From contig JAFQFR010000013.1 of the NCBI GenBank assembly GCA_017398595.1, positions 152-64,151 of the forward strand: DNA of 64,000 bases. The letters run 5' to 3'. Made by a program: the position numbers and the translations under genes. The notes beneath the pieces were generated by a model. It made no database searches. It saw only the letters and a program-made list of their open reading frames with translations, and was not told where the DNA came from. The DNA comes from Clostridia bacterium. Its GTDB lineage: Bacteria > Bacillota > Clostridia > Oscillospirales > CAG-272. This document shows positions 6,866 to 18,135 of this stretch, piece by piece (positions within the stretch are counted from its first letter, which is position 1; each line of letters starts with the position of its first letter).

Positions 6866-8521
6866 GTGATCGATTTTGATAAGGCGTTTGCAAACGAGTG
6901 CGAGGAATATCTGCTGTATGTATCCGAGCTTGCGGCGCGCAAGTACGGTGACTGTCCCGACATAGACAGCCTGATCCAGGACAGCATCCTGGCACTGCTC
7001 ATGCGCAAAAGGCAGGGGATCGAGGTCGAGCATCCGAAAGGATTCCTTGCCGCGGTGCTGCAAAACAAGTATAATGCGTGGCTGCGGGCGAAATATAAGA
7101 ACAAGATCCTGCAGTTTGAAAGTGCAGAATCCTTGCAGGAAGACGAGCTTTTATGGCGGGAAGAAGCCGAAAGCCGCGACGCGGAATACGCTGCGGTGCG
7201 CCGCGAGCTCGGGCGGCTGATCCGCATCTACCGCGAGGTGGCGGTGCGGTATTATGTGCACGGGCATTCGGTGGAGAGGATCGCAAAAGAGCTGCATATT
7301 TCCGCGGGTACGGTGAAATCCAGACTTTCGAGCGCGCGAAATCAGATCAGGGAGGGACTGGAGATGGAAAAATATGCACAGGTGAGTTATGAGCCGAAGA
7401 AGATGACGATCGGCATCTGGGGCGGCAGCGGACTGAGCAATGAGCCGTTTTCTTTGGTGCACTCGGATGTGGAGACGAATATTTTGATCTTAGCGTATGA
7501 CAATCCCACGTCGGTACGCGGCGTTGCCGATGCCATGGGTATGCCCGCGGCGTATATTGAGCCCTTAATCGACAGACTTGTCGAGGGCGAGCTGATGGGG
7601 CGCACCGACGGCGGTCTGGTCTACACCCGATGCTTTATCCAGCGGCAGAGCGAGTCGTTCGGCGACATCGGCGCGCAGGAGGCGCTGGCAGATCGCTATG
7701 CGGAGGCTGTGTGGCAGATCGTCTGGAAACATCTCGAGCCGCTCACGGTGCGCGAGGAGTTTGCCGCGATGTCCGAAAAGCAGAAAGCAACGATGGTTCT
7801 GTTTGTGATGCATCAAGCACTCGCCGATGTTGTACATCGGTGCAAACCGGTGGATCCGAGCGAGCCGAAGAAGCCGCCCGAGCGCCCGAACGCCGGCAGA
7901 TGGCTTGCGACCGGCACGATTTTAGATGTTGACCCGACCCAGCGCTGTAAATATGCAAGTTCGGGACCTGTACAGGTCGGCTATGCGGCGAAAAATGACG
8001 GTAAGTACGATTGCCGCATGTTCGACTGCCAGTCTTTGTTCGGCGAGGCGCACTGGGCATACGGCGAGTTCAAATATAAATGCTCACTGCAGAGCATCCT
8101 GCGATTTTACGCGTCGTTTTTGCCGTGTGATGTGGAGACCGACAACAAGCTGTTGTATGAGCTGATTCCCGAGTTTGAAAAGCTCGGCATCCTGAAGCGC
8201 GGCGGCGACGGCGAAGTTTCGCTCGACATTCCTGCGCTGACATTTGACGAGGCGGCGCAGTACTGGGATCCCGCAAGTGCGAAGATCCGCGAGGAGCTGT
8301 ATGCACTTTTGCACGCGGATCTGGAAAAAGCATGGAACAGCCGAAAGAACCGCGTGCCAAAGCATGTGGACGAAAGCAAACATTTCTTGCATACGGGTGC
8401 CATGGGCGCATATACCAAGGCGCAGATGCTCGCGATCGTGCAGAAAAATTTGATACCGTACCCCGTGACCGTCGGCAAAACGCCGATCATCTACGTTGCG
8501 TATCGAAAGAGCGAAAAATAA
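6866..8521 (+). CDS. Sigma-70 family (ECF-like) sigma factor with a long C-terminal extension
   Basis: 551 aa with a GTG start after AAAGGAGG. Region 2-like DSLIQDSILALL...FLAAVLQNKYNAWLR. Region 4 HTH VERIAKELHISAGTVKSRLSSARNQI ends near residue 165. About 385 further residues have no motif I recognise. Confidence 0.75.
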   Translation: MIDFDKAFANECEEYLLYVSELAARKYGDCPDIDSLIQDSILALLMRKRQGIEVEHPKGFLAAVLQNKYNAWLRAKYKNKILQFESAESLQEDELLWREEAESRDAEYAAVRRELGRLIRIYREVAVRYYVHGHSVERIAKELHISAGTVKSRLSSARNQIREGLEMEKYAQVSYEPKKMTIGIWGGSGLSNEPFSLVHSDVETNILILAYDNPTSVRGVADAMGMPAAYIEPLIDRLVEGELMGRTDGGLVYTRCFIQRQSESFGDIGAQEALADRYAEAVWQIVWKHLEPLTVREEFAAMSEKQKATMVLFVMHQALADVVHRCKPVDPSEPKKPPERPNAGRWLATGTILDVDPTQRCKYASSGPVQVGYAAKNDGKYDCRMFDCQSLFGEAHWAYGEFKYKCSLQSILRFYASFLPCDVETDNKLLYELIPEFEKLGILKRGGDGEVSLDIPALTFDEAAQYWDPASAKIREELYALLHADLEKAWNSRKNRVPKHVDESKHFLHTGAMGAYTKAQMLAIVQKNLIPYPVTVGKTPIIYVAYRKSEK

Positions 8522-9382: not shown

Positions 9383-10279
9383 TTATGCCTTTTTCTTGCC
9401 GAAGATCTTCGCCTGCGAGAGCAGGATGCCGACGAAGATGAGGGCACAGCCGATGTAGCCGCGCACACCGAGAAATTCATCGCGCAGCAGCCAGCCGCCG
9501 ATGGCGGCGAACACCGATTCGGTGCAGAGGATGATGGATGCGAGCGCGGGTTCGGTGCCGCGCTGACCGATGACCTGGCAGGTGTAGGCAACGCCGACCG
9601 AGAAGATACCGCAGTAGAGCAGGGGAACTGCCGCGCCCGTGAGCACCGCCCATGTGACGGTGATACCGCTCTCAAAGATGGGGGCGCAGAGCAGGTTCAG
9701 CGCGCCGCAGACGACAAACTGCACCAGCGAGAACTTCAGCGAGGGACAATCGCCCGCAAAGGTGTCGATAAAGACGATATGCGCCGTCCAGAAGAACGCG
9801 CCGATCAGTACGACGAGGTCGCCGAACTCGACCGACTGCGCACCGTCTGCAAAGCTGACGAAATACAGTCCCACAATGGCGACTGCCGCACCGATCCACG
9901 CCTCTGCGCGGATGCGCTTGTGCATGAAGATGCCGCAGAAGGGAACAAAGACCATGTACAGTCCCGTGATAAAGCCTGCCTTTGCCGAGCTGCCCGTCAG
10001 CGAGATGCCGTATTGCTGCAGTGCGGACGCGGAAAAAAGGATGGCGCCGCAGACGGAACCCTTGATGAGGAGATTTTTCCACTGCTTGCCGCTCAGCTTG
10101 CCTCGCTCAAAGAGCAGAACCACGGGGATCAGCGAAAGTGCGCCGATCATAAAACGGATACCGTTGAACCAAAAGGTGCCGAGCGTTTCGCCGCCGTCTG
10201 CCTGAAAGGCAAAGGCAAAGCCCCAGATGATCGCGGTGATAAACAAAATGATGATGGAGAAAATGCTGTTCTTTTTCAT
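9383..10279 (-). CDS. DMT superfamily (EamA-like) transporter
   Basis: 298 aa with about 10 hydrophobic segments and the two-EamA-repeat architecture. Confidence 0.85.
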   Translation of the reverse strand: MKKNSIFSIIILFITAIIWGFAFAFQADGGETLGTFWFNGIRFMIGALSLIPVVLLFERGKLSGKQWKNLLIKGSVCGAILFSASALQQYGISLTGSSAKAGFITGLYMVFVPFCGIFMHKRIRAEAWIGAAVAIVGLYFVSFADGAQSVEFGDLVVLIGAFFWTAHIVFIDTFAGDCPSLKFSLVQFVVCGALNLLCAPIFESGITVTWAVLTGAAVPLLYCGIFSVGVAYTCQVIGQRGTEPALASIILCTESVFAAIGGWLLRDEFLGVRGYIGCALIFVGILLSQAKIFGKKKA

Positions 10280-10314: not shown

Positions 10315-11184
10315 TTAGCGTTTTCCCGTATTTTTGTCAACTGAAATTCGTGGTTTTATAGCAGCATTCTTTTCATCCATATTCTCGGTAATAAAATTTT
10401 TCAGAAAATCCGTTGCAAAGGTATAAGAAATACCTTCTGTGCTTTTCCAGTATTCCAGCTCTGTGGAGATGTGATCCAACATATAGAAAAGCAGCGTGGC
10501 TAATTCATCATAGCTTTGCGGATAGAAAAACATTTTGTCAATGCGCATTTGTTCTTCTATCGGTAATAGATACATTTGCTTATACCGTTTGGAGTCAACT
10601 TCGTTTCTTTTTGCAATCAAATCAATGACTGCGGTTCGGATCTCATTTAATTCATAATAGCATCTGTATTTGTCATTCCGTTTGTATGCAATAATCGAGT
10701 GCATGAAGTTATACCATAACTTTTCGTCTATTATTCGGATAACTTTGTGCATATCAACAACATCTGTTGTGCCTTTGTTTTTCAGTTGCAGGTCATGCCA
10801 AGAGTTCACCATCTGTTTTTCTGCTTTGCCGGTTTTGTCATAAATAACTTTAAAATTTTCTCTTTTGGCATACAGGGCATCTAAAGTACAGTAGCCAATA
10901 TCTATTTCTAAGTAGTTATCTAACAAGAATACTTGCAGCTTTCTTCTTGGGATGGCTTCGTATGCGGCAATCTGACATATTTGCTGCATGTCTTGATATG
11001 TTTTTGTGAAAATGGTTTCTATATCACTGTCGTTTGTAACGATGGATAAGTCCAAATCCGAATACTTGTCTTTAAAGCCGATGGCGCCCGATCCCACCAA
11101 AATGACAGACAATATGTCTTCTCTGCTTTGCAAAGACATTACAAGTTGGTTTAATATTTTCTCTCTGTCTTTCGTATCGTACAT
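10315..11184 (-). CDS. Nucleotidyltransferase-domain protein with an Lnu/ANT-like antibiotic nucleotidyltransferase fold
   Basis: 289 aa. The pol-beta-type NTase motif LVGSGAIGFKDKYSDLDLSIV (GS...DxD) resembles the YGS...YSDIEF motif of lincosamide/aminoglycoside nucleotidyltransferases as I recall it. A helical C-terminal domain follows. Clearly AT-rich by eye. Confidence 0.55.
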   Translation of the reverse strand: MYDTKDREKILNQLVMSLQSREDILSVILVGSGAIGFKDKYSDLDLSIVTNDSDIETIFTKTYQDMQQICQIAAYEAIPRRKLQVFLLDNYLEIDIGYCTLDALYAKRENFKVIYDKTGKAEKQMVNSWHDLQLKNKGTTDVVDMHKVIRIIDEKLWYNFMHSIIAYKRNDKYRCYYELNEIRTAVIDLIAKRNEVDSKRYKQMYLLPIEEQMRIDKMFFYPQSYDELATLLFYMLDHISTELEYWKSTEGISYTFATDFLKNFITENMDEKNAAIKPRISVDKNTGKR

Positions 11185-11204
11185 TATATGAACCTCTTGA
11201 AACT

Positions 11205-12320
11205 TTACATTTGATTGTGTATTTCTTGCAGAATCGAACTGCCCTGCAAATTCGGTAACTGTGACAAACGATCAAAGCAGTCGGTAACATAGGTGTTGAT
11301 TGTTTCCGGGGACACATACTGATTTTCAATATAATCGGTTTCCGGAAACATCAAGCAATGTTTATTTTCCGAATCGTTCAAAAACGTCAAATATACCGTT
11401 CTTGTTTCCAGTAGCTGCTGCATGCAGGAGAGTGCTTTGTCCGTCATATCGAGGTCTGCATATTGCTTTACCATTCCATAGAGCAGTAAAGTTTTTTGAT
11501 AGATCATGCGATACGGCAAATAGTCACCTCCGGACAAAAATGCGTTGAGAATATGCAGCATATATTCATTTAGCGCCAACTGCTTTTCAACGCCTGTTTC
11601 TCCCTCTGCTGCTATGCTGATATTGCGGCACAGACGAATGCACCTTGCGATAAATCGCGCTTTTTCCGCAAAGCTTTCCTTGCATTTTTGCAGTGCCAAT
11701 TCCATATCCCCGTCTGCATATGCAAATTCTGCTTCCCAATAGGTACGATCGCCGAATGTGTGCGGCAGCTTTTCCTTGATTTGCTCGGCTCGTTCCTTTT
11801 CTCCGAGAAAGGTATAGCATCGTGAAGCAATATAATAACTTTTGAAAACCGCATCGGGATTTGTTTCATAGCGAGAGATACAGTTTTCATATCGCTTGCA
11901 TTCTTTTAAAAGTGTCTGTTTGTCGGCGTTTGTCCGCTTCGCGATTATCAGCACCGACAGGCTCTCAAGGCACCAAAAAGCGATCTCGGGATTGGTTGGA
12001 TGCTGGGCAAAAAGAGGGATCGATAAGTCATATATACGCTGTGCTTCGTCCGCGGAGAAAGAAACGGTATGATGTCCGATTTTTTCGCGGATAGAAGTGA
12101 TTTCTTCTTCTGTTTCATCCGACGTTAGCCCCAAAAGCTTGTCCGTAGAGATATTGAGTACCTTTGCAAGTGGTACGATCATAGAAATATCCGGCATGCC
12201 CCAATCCGTTTCCCATTTGGAAACCGCCTGCGTAGAGACATTGATCATTTCTGCGAGTTCACTTTGCGTGAGCCCCAGTTCTTTTCTGTAAAATCGAATG
12301 GTTTGACCTACTGACATCAT
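11205..12320 (-). CDS. XRE-family HTH regulator with a TPR-like helical C-terminal domain
   Basis: 371 aa. N-terminal Cro/C1 HTH IRFYRKELGLTQSELAEMINVSTQAVSKWE, followed by a long alpha-helical repeat-like region. AT-rich. Confidence 0.75.
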   Translation of the reverse strand: MMSVGQTIRFYRKELGLTQSELAEMINVSTQAVSKWETDWGMPDISMIVPLAKVLNISTDKLLGLTSDETEEEITSIREKIGHHTVSFSADEAQRIYDLSIPLFAQHPTNPEIAFWCLESLSVLIIAKRTNADKQTLLKECKRYENCISRYETNPDAVFKSYYIASRCYTFLGEKERAEQIKEKLPHTFGDRTYWEAEFAYADGDMELALQKCKESFAEKARFIARCIRLCRNISIAAEGETGVEKQLALNEYMLHILNAFLSGGDYLPYRMIYQKTLLLYGMVKQYADLDMTDKALSCMQQLLETRTVYLTFLNDSENKHCLMFPETDYIENQYVSPETINTYVTDCFDRLSQLPNLQGSSILQEIHNQM

Positions 12321-12492
12321 TGCTGTATGTTCTCCTTTTATGTTTTCGGTACCGTAATTCTATTATACTACAGCGATTCTTTACTGTAAACAAACTTAAC
12401 CGAAAGGTGAATTCCACGCACCGTGGAATTTTGAAGTGAGGCATGCAGCGTATTTCATAAAAAAACTCGTCAGAAATGGATAGGTTTTTATA

Positions 12493-12529
12493 TTGACAAA
12501 TGCACAAAGAGATGCTAAAATTTTAACAT
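12493..12529 (+). promoter_or_regulatory. Promoter of the hydrogenase-sensor operon with an overlapping Rex-like operator
   Basis: TTGACA (12493-12498), 17-nt spacer, TAAAAT (12516-12521). TGCTAAAATTTTAACA (12513-12528) has one mismatch to the Clostridia Rex core TGTTAA-N4-TTAACA. Confidence 0.6.
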
Positions 12530-12571: not shown

Positions 12572-12811
12572 ATGAAAATTACCGTTTGTATCGGCAGCTC
12601 CTGTCACCTCAAGGGATCACGCCAGGTCGTTACCGGTCTGCAGTACCTGATCGCGCAAAACAATCTCGCCGACCTTGTGGAGCTCGGCGGCACTTTTTGC
12701 ATGGGCAAATGCCAGGACGGCGTTTGCGTAACGGTGGATGAGAAGTTTTTCTCTGTATCTCCCGATACGGTAGAGGAATTCTTTAAAGAGCAGGTGCTTA
12801 CGAGGCTGTGA
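12572..12811 (+). CDS. Thioredoxin-like [2Fe-2S] ferredoxin-domain protein
   Basis: 79 aa from the ATG after AAAGGAG. Cys pattern CIGSSC...CMGKC (Cx4C...Cx3C), as in NuoE/HydC-type [2Fe-2S] modules. Confidence 0.7.
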   Translation: MKITVCIGSSCHLKGSRQVVTGLQYLIAQNNLADLVELGGTFCMGKCQDGVCVTVDEKFFSVSPDTVEEFFKEQVLTRL

Positions 12812-12812
12812 G

Positions 12813-13061
12813 ATGGTAATACAGATTTGTGTGGGCAGTTCCTGCCATCTGAAAGGCTCCCAGGAGATCGTGGAGCTGTTGCAAAAGGCGATCGAGGAGC
12901 ATCATCTTACCGAAGAGGTCACGCTGGCAGGCAGCTTTTGTATCGGCACCTGCAACCGCGACGGTGTGACCGTGCAGGTGGACAACGAGGTCTGCGTCGG
13001 CATCAACCGCGAGAACTTCAACAGCTTCCTGCAGAGAAAAATTCTGTCAAAATTCGCATAA
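12813..13061 (+). CDS. Thioredoxin-like [2Fe-2S] ferredoxin-domain protein (tandem paralogue)
   Basis: 82 aa with the same Cys pattern, CVGSSC...CIGTC. Starts 1 nt after the previous stop. Confidence 0.7.
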   Translation: MVIQICVGSSCHLKGSQEIVELLQKAIEEHHLTEEVTLAGSFCIGTCNRDGVTVQVDNEVCVGINRENFNSFLQRKILSKFA

Positions 13062-13092: not shown

Positions 13093-14769
13093 GTGTCCGA
13101 TTGCCTGACGCTGAAAAAATCCAACTGTAAAAACTGTTATAAATGTATCCGTCATTGCCCGGTGAAGTCCATCCGTTTTTCGGGAAACCAGGCGCATATC
13201 ATCGGCAATGAGTGTATCCTGTGCGGACAGTGCTTTGTCGTATGTCCGCAGAATGCAAAACAGATCGTAGACGAGACCGAAAAGGTGCGTGTCTTGCTGC
13301 AGGGCGGCGATCCCGTGATCGTCAGCCTGGCGCCCTCGTTTATCGCCAACTACAACGGCGTCGGCATCGGGGCAATGCGGAAAGCACTGCTCTCACTCGG
13401 CTTTTTTGACGTTGAGGAGACCGCGGTGGGCGCGACCATCGTCAAAAACGAGTATGAGCGCATCCTGCACGAGGAAAAGCCCGAGGTGCTGATCTCCTCC
13501 TGCTGCCATTCGGTCAATCTGTTGATCCAAAAATATTTCCCCACGGTGCTGCCGCATCTTGCCGACGTGCTGTCGCCCATGCAGGCACACTGCAAGGATA
13601 TTAAGCGCCGCAACCCGGGCGCGAAAACCGTATTCATCGGTCCCTGCGTTGCAAAAAAGGATGAAGCCGCGTATTACGAAGGCTATGTCGATGCGGTGCT
13701 GACCTATGAGGAGCTGACCGGATGGCTGAAGTCGGCGGGCGTGGAGCTCGTCCCCGAGAAGGACGAAACTGCCGAGAGCCGTGCACGCTTCTTCCCGACG
13801 ACGGGCGGCGTGCTCAAGACCATGAAACAGGACGAACCCGGCTATACATATCTTGCGATCGACGGTGTGGAGAACTGCATCGCCGCACTGCACGACATTG
13901 AAAGCGGCAATATCAAAAACTGCTTTATCGAGATGTCTGCCTGTGTCGGCGCCTGCGTCGGCGGTCCCGTTATGGAAAAATACCATCGTTCGCCCGTCAA
14001 GGACTACATGGCGGTCGCGGAATATGCAGGCGACCGTGACTTTGTCGTAGAGCAGCCGGGCATGCGCGAGCTGCGCAAGAATTTCACCCCCATCGAGCGC
14101 CGTTTGCAGACGCCGAGCGAGGACGAGATCCGCAGCGTTATGCGCCAGATGGGTAAGTTCAAGCCCTCGGATGAGCTCAACTGCGGCACCTGCGGATACC
14201 CCACCTGCCGCGATAAGGCGATCGCCATCTGCCACGGCAAGGCGGAGATCTCCATGTGCCTGCCGTTCCTCAAGGATAAGGCAGAGAACTTCTCGGACAC
14301 GATCGTGGAGAACACGCCGAACGGTCTGATCGTGCTCAACGAGAGCCTCGAGGTGCAGCAGATCAACTCGGCTGCACGCAAGATCATGAACATTCGTTCG
14401 GCATCCGACGTGCTCGGCGAGCAGGTCATCCGCATTATGGATCCCGCCGTTTTTGCCGAGGCCCTGCGCAACGGCAGAGGACCCGTCAACCAGCGTGCGT
14501 ATCTTGCCGAGTACAAGCGCTATGTCGAGCAGACCGTGGTCTACGACCGCGACTATCATCTGCTCATCTGCATCATGCGCGATGTGACCGATGAGGAAAG
14601 TGCGCGCGAGAGAAAAGAAGACATCAGCCGTCAGACGGTAGAGATCGCCGACCGCGTGGTCGATAAGCAAATGCGCATCGTGCAGGAGATCGCGTCGCTG
14701 CTGGGCGAGACGGCTGCCGAAACCAAGATCGCGCTGACCAAGCTAAAGGAGTCGATTTCTGATGAATGA
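13093..14769 (+). CDS. hydS: Sensory-type [FeFe]-hydrogenase homologue with C-terminal PAS domain (HydS / group C-like)
   Basis: 558 aa, GTG start after AAAGGAGAGAG. Has an N-terminal 2x[4Fe-4S] motif (CIRHCP, CILCGQCFVVCP). H-cluster-like motifs are SSCCHS, GPCVAKKDE and EMSACVGACVGG, with Ser where catalytic enzymes have Met before the Cys. An extra CGTCGYPTCRDK cluster and then a PAS-like region follow. Confidence 0.8.
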   Translation: MSDCLTLKKSNCKNCYKCIRHCPVKSIRFSGNQAHIIGNECILCGQCFVVCPQNAKQIVDETEKVRVLLQGGDPVIVSLAPSFIANYNGVGIGAMRKALLSLGFFDVEETAVGATIVKNEYERILHEEKPEVLISSCCHSVNLLIQKYFPTVLPHLADVLSPMQAHCKDIKRRNPGAKTVFIGPCVAKKDEAAYYEGYVDAVLTYEELTGWLKSAGVELVPEKDETAESRARFFPTTGGVLKTMKQDEPGYTYLAIDGVENCIAALHDIESGNIKNCFIEMSACVGACVGGPVMEKYHRSPVKDYMAVAEYAGDRDFVVEQPGMRELRKNFTPIERRLQTPSEDEIRSVMRQMGKFKPSDELNCGTCGYPTCRDKAIAICHGKAEISMCLPFLKDKAENFSDTIVENTPNGLIVLNESLEVQQINSAARKIMNIRSASDVLGEQVIRIMDPAVFAEALRNGRGPVNQRAYLAEYKRYVEQTVVYDRDYHLLICIMRDVTDEESARERKEDISRQTVEIADRVVDKQMRIVQEIASLLGETAAETKIALTKLKESISDE

Positions 14770-15934
14770 TCTGTGTGCCGACATCGGCTATAAAAGCATC
14801 AATCACTACGGCGAGCAGCTCTGCGGCGACCACGTGGACGTGGTCGATCAGGGAGAAAACTCGACAGTGATCGTCCTCGCGGACGGACTCGGCAGCGGCG
14901 TCAAGGCGAGCATTTTGTCCACGCTGACCTCCAAGATCATTTCCACCATGCTCGCGGCAAATCTGCCGCTGGAGGAGTGCGTTGCGGCGATCGCCGCAAC
15001 ACTGCCCGTGTGTTCACAGCGCGGCGTGGCGTATTCGACCTTTACGATCCTGCATCTGATCAACAATGAGACTGCCGAGGTCATCCAGTACGATAACCCG
15101 CAGGTCATCCTCATCCGCGACGAGGTCAACTACGATTACCCGAAAACCGAGATGAACATCGGCGGCAAAAAGATCTTCAAGTCGGTGATCAAGCTGCAGG
15201 AGAATGACATCTTCGTTTCCATGAGTGACGGATGCCCGCACGCGGGCATCGGCACCGCCTACAACTTCGGCTGGAAACTGGCGGATATTACCGAATTCTT
15301 GGAGGGGCTTGCCCCCGTCGGTTACACGGCGAAAACGCTCTCCACCATTTTGGTGGATGAGTGCGACAAGCTCTACGGCGGGAAGCCGGGAGACGATGCC
15401 ACCGCCTGCGTGGTGCGCATCCGCCGCCGCGTGCCCATGAATATACTGTTCGGTCCGCCGTCCAACCGCGACGACTGCGACCGCATGATGTCGCTCTTCT
15501 TCTCCAAGGAGGGCAAGCACATTGTTTGCGGCGGTACGACCTCGACCATCGTGTCGAACTACCTGCGCAAGCCGCTGAAAGCGTCGCTCAACTTCGTGCA
15601 GTCGGACATCCCGCCGATCGCCGAGATCGAGGGTGTGGATCTTGTCACCGAGGGCGTCATCACGGTCAACCGCGTGGTCACCTATGCCAAGGACTATCTG
15701 GAAGAAAACAAGTGCTATGAGCACTGGAGCATCCAGCGCGACGGCGCTTCGCTGATCAGCCGCCTCTTGTTCGAGGAAGCGACGGACATCAATTTCTTTG
15801 TCGGCAGAGCCGTCAACCCCGCGCATCAGAACCCCGATCTGCCGATCAACTTTAATATCAAGATGAATCTGGTTGAAGAACTTTCAACCTGCCTGCGCAA
15901 GATGGGCAAGCATGTCAAGGTCGTATATTTTTAA
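14762..15934 (+). CDS. SpoIIE/PP2C-family serine phosphatase with an additional C-terminal domain
   Basis: 390 aa. Motifs CGDHVDVV...VLADGLGSGVKASI and SDGCPHAG are typical of SpoIIE-like PP2C. Overlaps hydS by 8 nt. Confidence 0.8.
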   Translation: MNDLCADIGYKSINHYGEQLCGDHVDVVDQGENSTVIVLADGLGSGVKASILSTLTSKIISTMLAANLPLEECVAAIAATLPVCSQRGVAYSTFTILHLINNETAEVIQYDNPQVILIRDEVNYDYPKTEMNIGGKKIFKSVIKLQENDIFVSMSDGCPHAGIGTAYNFGWKLADITEFLEGLAPVGYTAKTLSTILVDECDKLYGGKPGDDATACVVRIRRRVPMNILFGPPSNRDDCDRMMSLFFSKEGKHIVCGGTTSTIVSNYLRKPLKASLNFVQSDIPPIAEIEGVDLVTEGVITVNRVVTYAKDYLEENKCYEHWSIQRDGASLISRLLFEEATDINFFVGRAVNPAHQNPDLPINFNIKMNLVEELSTCLRKMGKHVKVVYF

Positions 15935-15952
15935 GGAGATTTTTGAAAAACC

Positions 15953-17376
15953 ATGAGAAAGTTTGATACCAAAGTACAGCACCTCAAATACAAGGTCCTG
16001 CGCGAAGTCGCGCGCGAGGCATGGAACGGAACTCTGCTGGAGAATGCGCTCGATATTCCGAAGAAGATCGTGCCCGGCAAGGAGCCGACCTGCGCTGCTG
16101 CGTGTACAAGGAGCGCGCGATCCTCGGCGAGCGCGTGCAGATCGCCATGGGACGCACCGATGACGGTCAGCATGTGATCGAGGTCATCGAGATCGCCTGC
16201 GACGAGTGCCCTGCTGCCGGCTATGAAGTCACCGATTCCTGTCGCGGATGCCTTGCACACCGCTGTGAGGACGTCTGCAAGCGCGGCGCGATCTCCTTTG
16301 ACCACAACCATGTGGCGCACATTGATAAAACCAAGTGCGTGGAGTGCGGTCAGTGTGCGAAGGTCTGCCCCTTTGCCGCGATCGCCAACCGCAAGCGCCC
16401 TTGTCAGAATGCCTGCAAGATCAAAGCGATCTCCATGGATGAAAACAAGGCGGCAAAGATCGACTACGAAAAGTGCATTTCCTGCGGTGCGTGCGTGTAC
16501 CAGTGCCCGTTCGGCGCCATCACCGACCGTTCCTATATCCTTGACGTCATCGACCTCTTGAAAGAGAGCGAGGGCGGCAAAAATACCAAGGTATATGCGG
16601 TCGTCGCACCCTCGATCTCCAGCCAGTTTACATATGCAAAGCTCGGTCAGGTCATCACGGGACTCAAGGAGCTCGGCTTCTTCACCGTGGTCGAGGCGGC
16701 GCTCGGCGCGGATATGGTTGCCCTGTCCGAGTCGAAGGAACTTGTCGAGAAAGGCTTCTTGACCAGCTCCTGCTGTCCCGCGTTCGTAAAATACATCAAG
16801 TCGTCGTTCCCCGAGCTCGTACCGCTCGTTTCGCACAATCCCTCGCCCATGACGGCGATCGCCAAGTATATCAAGGAGATCACGCCGAATGCCAAGGTGG
16901 TCTTTATCGGTCCCTGCACGGCGAAGAAGGGAGAAGTGCAGCTCGAAGAAGTGCGCCCCTATGTGGATGCGGCAATGACCTTTGAGGAGCTGCAGGCACT
17001 CTTTGACAGCCGCGACATCGATATTACCACGCTTTCCGAGGGCGTGCTGGATAACGCGTCCTACTTTGGCAGAATCTTTGCCCGCTCGGGTGGTCTGTCC
17101 GATTCGGTCAAACAGGCACTCAAAGAGCAGGGCATCGAGGACTTCCCGCTGAAAGCCGCTGTTTGCGACGGTATCGAAGCCTGCCGCACGGCACTGCTCA
17201 AAAAGAGCAAGAATCTCCTCGACGCAAACTTCATCGAGGGCATGGCATGTATGGGCGGCTGCATCAACGGCGCCGGATGCCTGACGCATGGGGAAAAGAA
17301 TAAAGCCGAGGTCGATAAATACGGCATGGAAGCATACGAAAAAACCATCACCGAGGCTGTATCGGTACTGAAATAA
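15953..17376 (+). pseudogene. hydA: [FeFe]-hydrogenase (group B / HydA2-like), interrupted by a 1-nt frameshift as assembled
   Basis: The N-terminal 46 codons (15953-16090, ...IVPGKEPT) are in one frame. The rest, RCCVYKERAILGERV... from 16093, is in another, with only 2 nt (TG) between them. Catalytic H-cluster motifs are intact: TSSCCPAF, GPCTAKKGE, EGMACMGGCINGAG. Several 4Fe-4S motifs are also present. Confidence 0.75.
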
Positions 17377-17380
17377 TCCA

Positions 17381-17416
17381 AAAACGGCATGCTTTTAAAC
17401 GAGCATGCCTTTTTTC
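17381..17416 (+). terminator. Rho-independent terminator after the hydrogenase gene
   Basis: GGCATGCT/AGCATGCC stem followed by TTTTTTC. Confidence 0.75.
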
Positions 17417-17446: not shown

Positions 17447-17451
17447 GAGTG

Positions 17452-17640
17452 CAGCAGATCAAGAGGAATCGGGTGCAACTCCCGGGCGGGCACGCCGCCG
17501 TGAACCTTTTTGCTGCAAAACGGGCACATTGCCACATGTGCTTCGCGAAAGCGGTCATTGATGCATTTTGCATCGAGAAGGCGTTTTGCATTTTGAGGCA
17601 AGCCGGAATACTCGAGATCGAACGCGGCTGTATGCGAGTG
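17452..17640 (+). promoter_or_regulatory. Probable cobalamin (B12) riboswitch
   Basis: AAGAGGAATCGGGTGCAACTCCCGGGCGGGCACGCCGCCGTGAAC matches, by eye, the conserved core AGGGAA..GGTG.AA.TCC...C.G.CCCGCCACTGTAA. The downstream CAAGCCGGAATACTCG resembles the AGCCAGGAGACCTGCC element. It precedes genes of B12-uptake type. Confidence 0.6.
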
Positions 17641-17688
17641 CCGACATCGCGGCTGCGGCGATGCATCATTAGAAAGGACAGAAAGAAA

Positions 17689-18135
17689 ATGAAAAAACAA
17701 ACTCTTTTGATTCGCCTTTCGCTCGTTCTGACCCTTTGTCTGCTTGTGGCGGCAGTATCGGTCGGATGCGGCGAACAAACACCACAGGAGACGACAGGTA
17801 CATCGGATGTGCAGCCTGCACCGGCTGCGGAGCCGATCGGAGAGGGGCAGTACACCTTTGCCTTTACCGCGGTCTTTGCCGATGGCAGCGCAAAGCGCTA
17901 TGCGGTCTCCACCGATCGTGAAACGGTCGGAGAAGCGCTGATCGAACTGAAACTGATCGAGGGAGAAGCAGGTCCCTACGGTCTGTATGTCAAGAGCGTA
18001 TGCGGCGTGGTCGCCGATTACAATATCGACGGCACCTATTGGTCGCTGTACACCGACGGCGAAATGTCGATGACCGGCGTGGACTCGCTTGGAAGCGCGG
18101 ACGCCGTGGACATTGAATTCCGCGTAGAGAAATGA
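17689..18135 (+). CDS. DUF4430 (transcobalamin-like C-terminal domain) lipoprotein
   Basis: 148 aa from ATG 17689. Signal peptide plus lipobox (LLVAAVSVGC). The YTFAFTAVFADGS...WSLYTDGEMSMTGVDS region is typical of DUF4430. Confidence 0.7.
   Translation: MKKQTLLIRLSLVLTLCLLVAAVSVGCGEQTPQETTGTSDVQPAPAAEPIGEGQYTFAFTAVFADGSAKRYAVSTDRETVGEALIELKLIEGEAGPYGLYVKSVCGVVADYNIDGTYWSLYTDGEMSMTGVDSLGSADAVDIEFRVEK

Follow-up and report, generated by a model that had tools for sequence, protein, structure and literature searches.

The disrupted hydrogenase gene

The sequence considered here, referred to as the window, is a 64,000 nucleotide stretch of the genome of a Clostridia bacterium (assembly GCA_017398595.1, contig JAFQFR010000013.1, positions 152 to 64,151 of the forward strand). 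It carries a gene for a group B [FeFe]-hydrogenase that is split between two reading frames by the absence of a single base. The parts of this gene, in window coordinates, are as follows:

15953..16090, plus strand: codons 1-46 of the HfsD/HydA2-type group B [FeFe]-hydrogenase, in frame A (translation, TIGR04105)
16091..16092, plus strand: deletion site, the leftover TG of codon 47 (ATG, Met) (single-gap alignments)
16093..17376, plus strand: codons 48-474 and the stop codon of the same hydrogenase, in frame B, which is -1 relative to frame A (translation, TIGR04105)
16021..17376, plus strand: the 451 amino acid open reading frame (ORF) reported by gene callers for the broken gene (ORF list)
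16174..16177, plus strand: GTGA overlap, GTG 16174-16176 (frame B) over TGA 16175-16177 (the stop of frame A) (direct reading)

Read directly, positions 16079-16110 of the hydrogenase gene are AAG GAG CCG ACC-TG-CGC TGC TGC GTG TAC AAG GAG. From the ATG at 15953 up to 16090, frame A encodes MRKFDTKVQHLKYKVLREVAREAWNGTLLENALDIPKKIVPGKEPT, which starts MRKFDT and ends PGKEPT; past 16090 this frame goes out of frame as far as the TGA at 16175-16177, making an ORF of 74 amino acids. Frame B, from the CGC at 16093, encodes RCCVYKERAILGERVQIAMG... and continues for 427 residues to the stop at 17374-17376. A base A that is present in all of the relatives is absent between 16090 and 16091. The context of the deletion, CC[A]TG, contains no repeat and no homopolymer, the latter as an earlier note on this DNA had said of the site. 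All 46 of the frame A residues are identical to those of the intact conspecific protein (P0003), and the frame B piece is 99% identical to it. That the frame is split is certain for the sequence as given, and the split is no chance resemblance.

The first 24 residues of the 451 amino acid ORF (MERNSAGECARYSEEDRARQGADL) come from reading the true N-terminal coding region in the wrong frame. This annotated "hydrogenase" and the identical public entries are artefacts of the broken gene, with a spurious 24 residue N-terminus, and should not be counted as a functional producer of H2. On the minus strand, an antisense ORF of 452 amino acids at 15931-17289 spans nearly the whole of the hydrogenase gene; it is a shadow ORF, of a kind that is common at 53% G+C.

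Family assignment and conserved motifs

The 46 amino acid piece matches TIGR04105 (NCBIfam, FeFe_hydrog_B1, monomeric [FeFe] hydrogenase group B1) at model positions 1-42, and the downstream piece alone matches positions 45-461 with 519.3 bits, above the curated cut-off of 450 bits. The H-cluster motifs TSSCCPAF, IGPCTAKK, and EGMACMGGCINGAG are all present in frame B. The H-cluster cysteines C274/C275 (TSSCCP), C322 (GPCTAKK), and C433/C437 (MACMGGC) are all kept downstream of the deletion, as are the cysteines of the ferredoxin-type motifs, which confirms the earlier note's statement that the H-cluster and Fe-S motifs are intact there. In an alignment of 36 sequences (A3), C275, C322, C433, C437, and the cysteines of the ferredoxin-type motifs are invariant and C274 is nearly so. 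A continuous frame of about 470-495 amino acids, with the N-terminal helical segment and the RCC motif, is not found in the window copy, which on these features is a broken member of group B that would not be functional as written.

The architecture is the same as in group B [FeFe]-hydrogenases from gut bacteria (TIGR04105; the Bacteroides enzymes, PMC12578642), with a small N-terminal ferredoxin-like domain, two further [4Fe-4S] motifs, and an H-domain. The window copy differs in being split by the frameshift, and it belongs to a Clostridia enzyme that is 35-55% identical to the most distant of the aligned family representatives. According to Welsh et al. 2025 (PMC12578642), two "off-pathway" clusters sit in the N-terminal ferredoxin-like domain of group B enzymes, with a flexible linker leading to the H-domain. 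A recent proposal is that group B hydrogenases are the principal source of H2 in the gut (PMC12578642).

Comparison with conspecific and related sequences

With the read-through protein as the query, carrying X at the junction, the 120 best homologues were all full length, at 472-495 amino acids. The best relative, P0003, is 99% identical and reads ...GKEPTMRCCVYKE... across the junction. The DNA encoding it, ENA ERZ27297755 k141_383075 (loci L003/L015), shares 99.0% identity with the window over 15 kb. At the site it has ACC-ATG-CGC where the window has ACC-TG-CGC, a difference of one gap. Four more conspecific contigs from other sample assemblies (L016-L019; TONG22-1_SAMN15871218, TONG22-1_SAMN15870993, TONG22-1_SAMN15871044, and ERZ27297558 k141_378579) also read ACC-ATG-CGC, again in single-gap alignments. 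Together these make five independent intact contigs of the species, each from a different sample assembly, with 98.9-99.2% identity to the window across 7-15 kb. The genome's own paralogue of the gene has ACC-ATG-CGT at the same place. Since all of the compared copies carry ATG, the missing base is the A of the Met47 codon.

This agrees with the earlier note, in which one nucleotide was said to be missing between ACC and CGC and relatives were given as reading P(T/K)xRCCVYKERAI. In close relatives the reading is indeed PTMRCCVYKERAI, and R48-C49-C50 hardly varies down to 35% identity.

Of 30 related genomes searched, 14 have a match, and in each of these a single open frame spans residues 1-474 (for a few, 1-471); only the genome of the window (G000) has a match from residue 46 onward. 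In the sister species (G006), at 96% amino acid identity, the gene is intact in one frame. Likewise, each of 80 species-representative copies taken from GTDB genomes keeps one frame throughout when aligned to P0003, and none has a frameshift. In all of the 36 representatives at 35-55% identity the N-terminal segment runs on unbroken into the RCC motif, and in the alignment of these 36 sequences conservation is 90% or more at R48, C49, and C50, with variation at position 47. In closer homologues residues 2-46 are conserved like the catalytic core. It had been allowed in the earlier note that the N-terminal 46 residues might normally have an ORF of their own. The relatives examined all have one continuous frame, which rules this out.

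The record titles of the relatives are of Acutalibacteraceae, Oscillospiraceae, and Clostridia metagenome-assembled genomes (MAGs), many of them from the guts of goat, sheep, yak, and cattle, and one member of the protein cluster is MBQ9133473.1, "MAG: Clostridia bacterium". The sample labels XIEF21 (on one of the contigs described below) and TONG22 would appear to be those of ruminant-gut studies.

Gene conversion from the paralogue, which is 80% identical, or a chimeric assembly with it, was also considered as the origin of the disrupted copy. This was rejected, as the flanks of the site match the conspecific orthologue instead.

Age of the lesion

Between the window and L015, 17 codons of the gene differ, 15 of them synonymously and 2 non-synonymously, and with the sister species as outgroup both of the non-synonymous changes fall on the L015 side. 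At 8 positions the window differs from all four conspecific haplotypes, and all 8 of these differences are synonymous. Across the conspecifics as a whole the polymorphic codons are 37 synonymous and 5 non-synonymous. The nearest intact haplotype, L018, is 35 single-nucleotide polymorphisms (SNPs) per 5.3 kb away from the window. From these counts, the gene was under purifying selection along essentially the whole of the branch leading to the window clone. The deletion, if it is real, is very recent. The earlier note's expectation that any inactivation would be recent is supported by these 8 window-private substitutions.

Deletion or artefact

The window genome is a MAG of 1.88 Mb in 57 contigs, with an N50 of 79.5 kb and 53% G+C. 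The exact 451 amino acid broken ORF (P0123) is recorded on three contigs:

a contig of the size class 0.2-1 Mb, taken to be the window's own contig C10 (201,926 bp)
ERZ28653877 XIEF21-1_SAMN15829895_METAG-scaffold_41, 232,971 bp
ERZ28018964 k141_448489, 10,545 bp, listed for 2 samples

The second of these matches C10 with 100% identity over 21.4 kb and the third does so over 10.5 kb, with the deletion included. Their boundaries differ: scaffold_41 begins about 2.7 kb inside C10 and reaches about 34 kb past it, while k141_448489 ends at window positions 7867 and 18411.

The frameshift is probably a genuine and very recent one-base deletion in one clone of an uncultured Clostridia species of the animal gut. 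The alternative, that the gene is intact and the missing A is a consensus error of one read set, repeated whenever those reads were re-assembled, is considerably less probable, although the assembly error that was raised in the earlier note is weakened rather than removed by the finding that three assemblies share the deletion. Several points limit the case for a genuine, inactivating deletion. The source genome is a MAG that is only 75% complete and is divided into 57 contigs. The three deletion-bearing assemblies are identical over 10-21 kb and may all derive from one re-assembled read set; if so, they do not observe the DNA independently of one another. No amino acid changes have accumulated in the gene, as would be expected of an intact gene as well. 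A pattern scan of Joint Genome Institute metagenomes matched neither allele, adding no population evidence, and the loss of function is itself deduced from the sequence.

On the other side, the deletion persists through at least three assembly runs that differ in contig boundaries, contiguity, and naming ("k141_", "scaffold_", and the names of the MAG itself), so an assembler-specific glitch is unlikely, and we infer that the deleted form must dominate in the reads. Contig names in "k141_" are typical of MEGAHIT, a short-read assembler, and a short-read consensus rarely has single-base deletions outside homopolymers. This site lies outside any homopolymer. In about 21 kb compared with a 99% identical strain, the only other small indels are three single bases, at 9385, 19870, and 26710, all of which are in intergenic A/T runs, which argues that the assembly is not generally prone to indels in coding sequence. 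In a genome-wide scan for frameshifts, based on codon usage and made for this analysis, there were 67 candidates, and the strongest of those inspected were antisense shadow ORFs.

Predicted consequences for the protein

If the deletion is genuine, ribosomes starting at the ATG at 15953 would make residues 1-46, followed by 28 wrong codons, and would stop at the TGA at 16175-16177. The remainder of the enzyme would not be made to any notable extent, since ribosome-binding sites are lacking at all internal starts. The lost part would include the first conserved cysteine pair (C49/C50), every Fe-S domain, and the domain of the H-cluster. Such an allele would be null or at most weakly hypomorphic.

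For the intact conspecific protein, an AlphaFold2 model made from an alignment of 81 sequences has a mean predicted local distance difference test score (pLDDT) of 89 and a predicted template modelling score (pTM) of 0.87; an earlier run with 37 close homologues gave a poor model, with a pLDDT of 53. In the better model residues 7-25 and 28-39 are two helices, with a pLDDT of about 95. These are followed by a loop at 40-50 that bears T46-M47-R48-C49-C50, and then by a helix at 51-65. The model matches the solved [FeFe]-hydrogenases CpI, DdH, and the HydA of HydABC with Foldseek E-values of 1e-17 to 1e-19. There is no solved structure of a group B enzyme, and the first 120 residues or so are without a sequence match in the PDB. 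The frameshift falls just ahead of the first conserved cysteine pair.

It might be supposed that a real deletion has nonetheless left a working hydrogenase in altered or truncated form, started at ATG 16021 (451 amino acids) or at GTG 16174 (400 amino acids). Frame B is indeed open from 16021, and GTG 16174 overlaps the TGA at 16175-16177 in an arrangement that is known to permit translational coupling. Since the off-pathway clusters are joined to the H-domain by a linker (PMC12578642), a truncated H-domain might also retain some activity. However, no properly spaced Shine-Dalgarno sequence is present at any of the internal frame B starts, so that none of the candidate starts has a usable one. 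At ATG 16021 there is a GAGG just one base upstream, and this is the sole Shine-Dalgarno-like sequence there, making the reinitiation at this ATG that had been proposed in the earlier note unlikely. The GTG codons at 16102 and 16135 have AAGGAG about 18-21 nt upstream, and ATG 16147 and GTG 16174 have no Shine-Dalgarno-like sequence upstream. The GTGA overlap at 16174-16177 is the only plausible place for termination and reinitiation, and low-level use of it is conceivable, with a product of 400 amino acids that would lack residues 1-74. Such a product would be without C49/C50 and without the helix at 51-65, both of which are confidently placed in the model. Furthermore, residues 1-46 and R48-C49-C50 are near-invariant in group B down to 35% identity, which argues that they are under selection, and the short form is not the normal gene in any relative examined. 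A functional product from an internal start is therefore regarded as very improbable.

Restoration of the full-length protein by programmed recoding, whether through -1 ribosomal frameshifting or transcriptional slippage, can be given practically no weight. The shift required is -1 (or +2), and re-reading of base 16090 in a -1 shift after ACC would give ...EPT-L-RCC..., at a position, 47, that is variable in distant relatives. However, there is no heptamer of the form X XXY YYZ at the site, the local sequence being G CCG ACC TGC GCT with no repeat of identical bases, and there is no homopolymer on which transcription could slip. Nor is the shift conserved: 5 conspecific contigs, the sister species, 13 further relatives, and 80 representatives all have the gene in frame. 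A +1 shift at a CGG codon does not apply either, the direction being wrong; no CGG codon stands at the site, and CGG has a frequency of 3.5 per 1000 codons in this genome.

A recent one-base deletion with probable loss of the hydrogenase's function is the preferred reading. In kind, this is an ordinary strain-specific frameshift allele in a well-known kind of gene. As with other strain-specific frameshift pseudogenes and null alleles of bacterial populations and MAGs, one base has been affected in one clone, all close relatives have the gene intact, and no further decay is seen; the sole distinction is that the indel lies outside a homopolymer.

Operon context

The hydrogenase gene is the last of five co-oriented genes, all of which have Pfam or NCBIfam matches and which would form an operon. 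The other features of this unit are as follows:

12493..12521, plus strand: promoter-like site TTGACA-17-TAAAAT, with TG before the -10 (consensus scan, 11/12; a consensus match only)
12572..12811, plus strand: small thioredoxin-like [2Fe-2S] protein, 79 amino acids (PF01257, E = 2.7e-6; also called in the conspecific contigs)
12813..13061, plus strand: second small thioredoxin-like [2Fe-2S] protein, 82 amino acids (PF01257, E = 1.9e-8)
13093..14769, plus strand: putative sensory [FeFe]-hydrogenase homologue of the HydS/HfsB type, with PAS domain at the C-terminus, 558 amino acids, intact (PF02906, E = 1.6e-47; PF04060; PF00989)
14762..15934, plus strand: PP2C/SpoIIE-type phosphatase (HfsC-like), 390 amino acids, intact (PF07228, E = 2.8e-14)
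17386..17409, plus strand: terminator-like hairpin, a 9-pair stem followed by the T-run TTTTTTCTTT (consensus scan)

The HydS/HfsB-type sensor scores 197 bits against TIGR04105, which is below the cut-off, and is 558 amino acids long in all of the conspecific contigs. The same order of five genes is found in all of the conspecific and sister-species contigs. Since the broken hydrogenase is last in the operon, no polar effect on downstream genes would be expected. The sensor module upstream, consisting of both [2Fe-2S] proteins, the PAS-HydS homologue, and the PP2C phosphatase, is untouched. Downstream of the operon is a gene for a LysR regulator and then, 2.5 kb away, adhE.

On domain content and gene order, this unit is likely to be orthologous to hfsABCD of Thermoanaerobacterium saccharolyticum and T. 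thermosaccharolyticum, and can be described as an hfsABCD-like operon. The logic is the same, with Fe-S protein(s), a PAS-containing HydS/HfsB, a PP2C phosphatase (HfsC), and last a monomeric ferredoxin-linked hydrogenase. It differs in having two [2Fe-2S] proteins, of 79 and 82 amino acids, where the literature has a single HfsA, and in the one-base deletion in the HfsD-type gene. HfsD has been equated with HydA2 of Ruminococcus albus, whose HydS/HydA2 genes are described with this layout too (PMC11837493; PMC13277313). Deletion of hfsD lowers H2 and the flux through pyruvate:ferredoxin oxidoreductase, a phenotype that is from thermophiles only (PMC11837493; PMC13277313), and any corresponding effect on fermentation in the window clone would be by analogy with these species.

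Remaining hydrogenases in the genome

A scan of the genome with PF02906 found four other intact genes with a hydrogenase domain: two on contig C52, the sensor described above, and a group B paralogue. The intact group B paralogue is outside the window, on the minus strand at C10:138777-140192 (locus L002, 416-1894), and has 80% amino acid identity to the disrupted gene. Its open frame is 492-494 amino acids, and it adjoins a gene similar to that for L-lactate dehydrogenase and is near a radical-SAM gene. Both paralogues are intact in the sister species, while most of the other congeners searched have one match. That other hydrogenases are kept would suggest that the loss of this copy is tolerable and need not abolish H2 metabolism.

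Other disrupted alleles and their significance

Two other disrupted alleles surfaced without a systematic search. One is a copy of the same orthologue in the sister species (L100:1-989; ENA ERZ28436104 NODE_4360_length_19288_cov_3.9), in which TGC has become TGA at Cys322 (FIGP*TAKK). This copy also has C155R and differs from L004 at 6 positions in 992 nt; its coverage, going by the name of the contig, is about 3.9x, and these changes could be sequencing errors. The other is in an Acutalibacteraceae MAG (L025:301-1722; JAZRQN010000129.1), where there is an in-frame stop near codon 417 (ALL*KKKN) in a copy that is otherwise 80% identical and full length. This is the only internal stop among the 80 species-representative copies.

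It is possible to see the window clone as a naturally circulating hfsD-null, one case of a recurrent and perhaps adaptive strain-level loss in the Clostridia of the animal gut, but this is improbable. Were it so, such clones would keep the H2 sensor and the phosphatase while losing the cognate enzyme, and electrons would be moved from H2 to ethanol or lactate, adhE being 2.5 kb downstream. If the deletion is real, the window clone would be a natural knockout of a sensor-linked hydrogenase in an otherwise intact regulatory operon, and comparison of it with the intact relatives that are 99% identical could show the share that this enzyme has in gut H2 output. Given the role in gut H2 that has been proposed for group B (PMC12578642), natural nulls of this kind would have a modest value as study material.

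Other differences between the strains near the operon

The DUF4430 gene at 17449-18135 is called as 199 amino acids in the window clone and as 148 amino acids in all of the conspecific contigs. As there is no indel between them, the difference is one of start site, caused by SNPs at 17569-17670. On the other side of the operon, 2.1 kb of the window (10349-12457) is absent from L015 and L016, which have 39 bp there. On the minus strand, this region has a protein of 289 amino acids with a nucleotidyltransferase domain (10315-11184) and an HTH_3/XRE-type protein of 371 amino acids (11205-12320). From these comparisons, 10349-12457 is a strain-specific islet located directly upstream of the promoter-like site of the hydrogenase operon.

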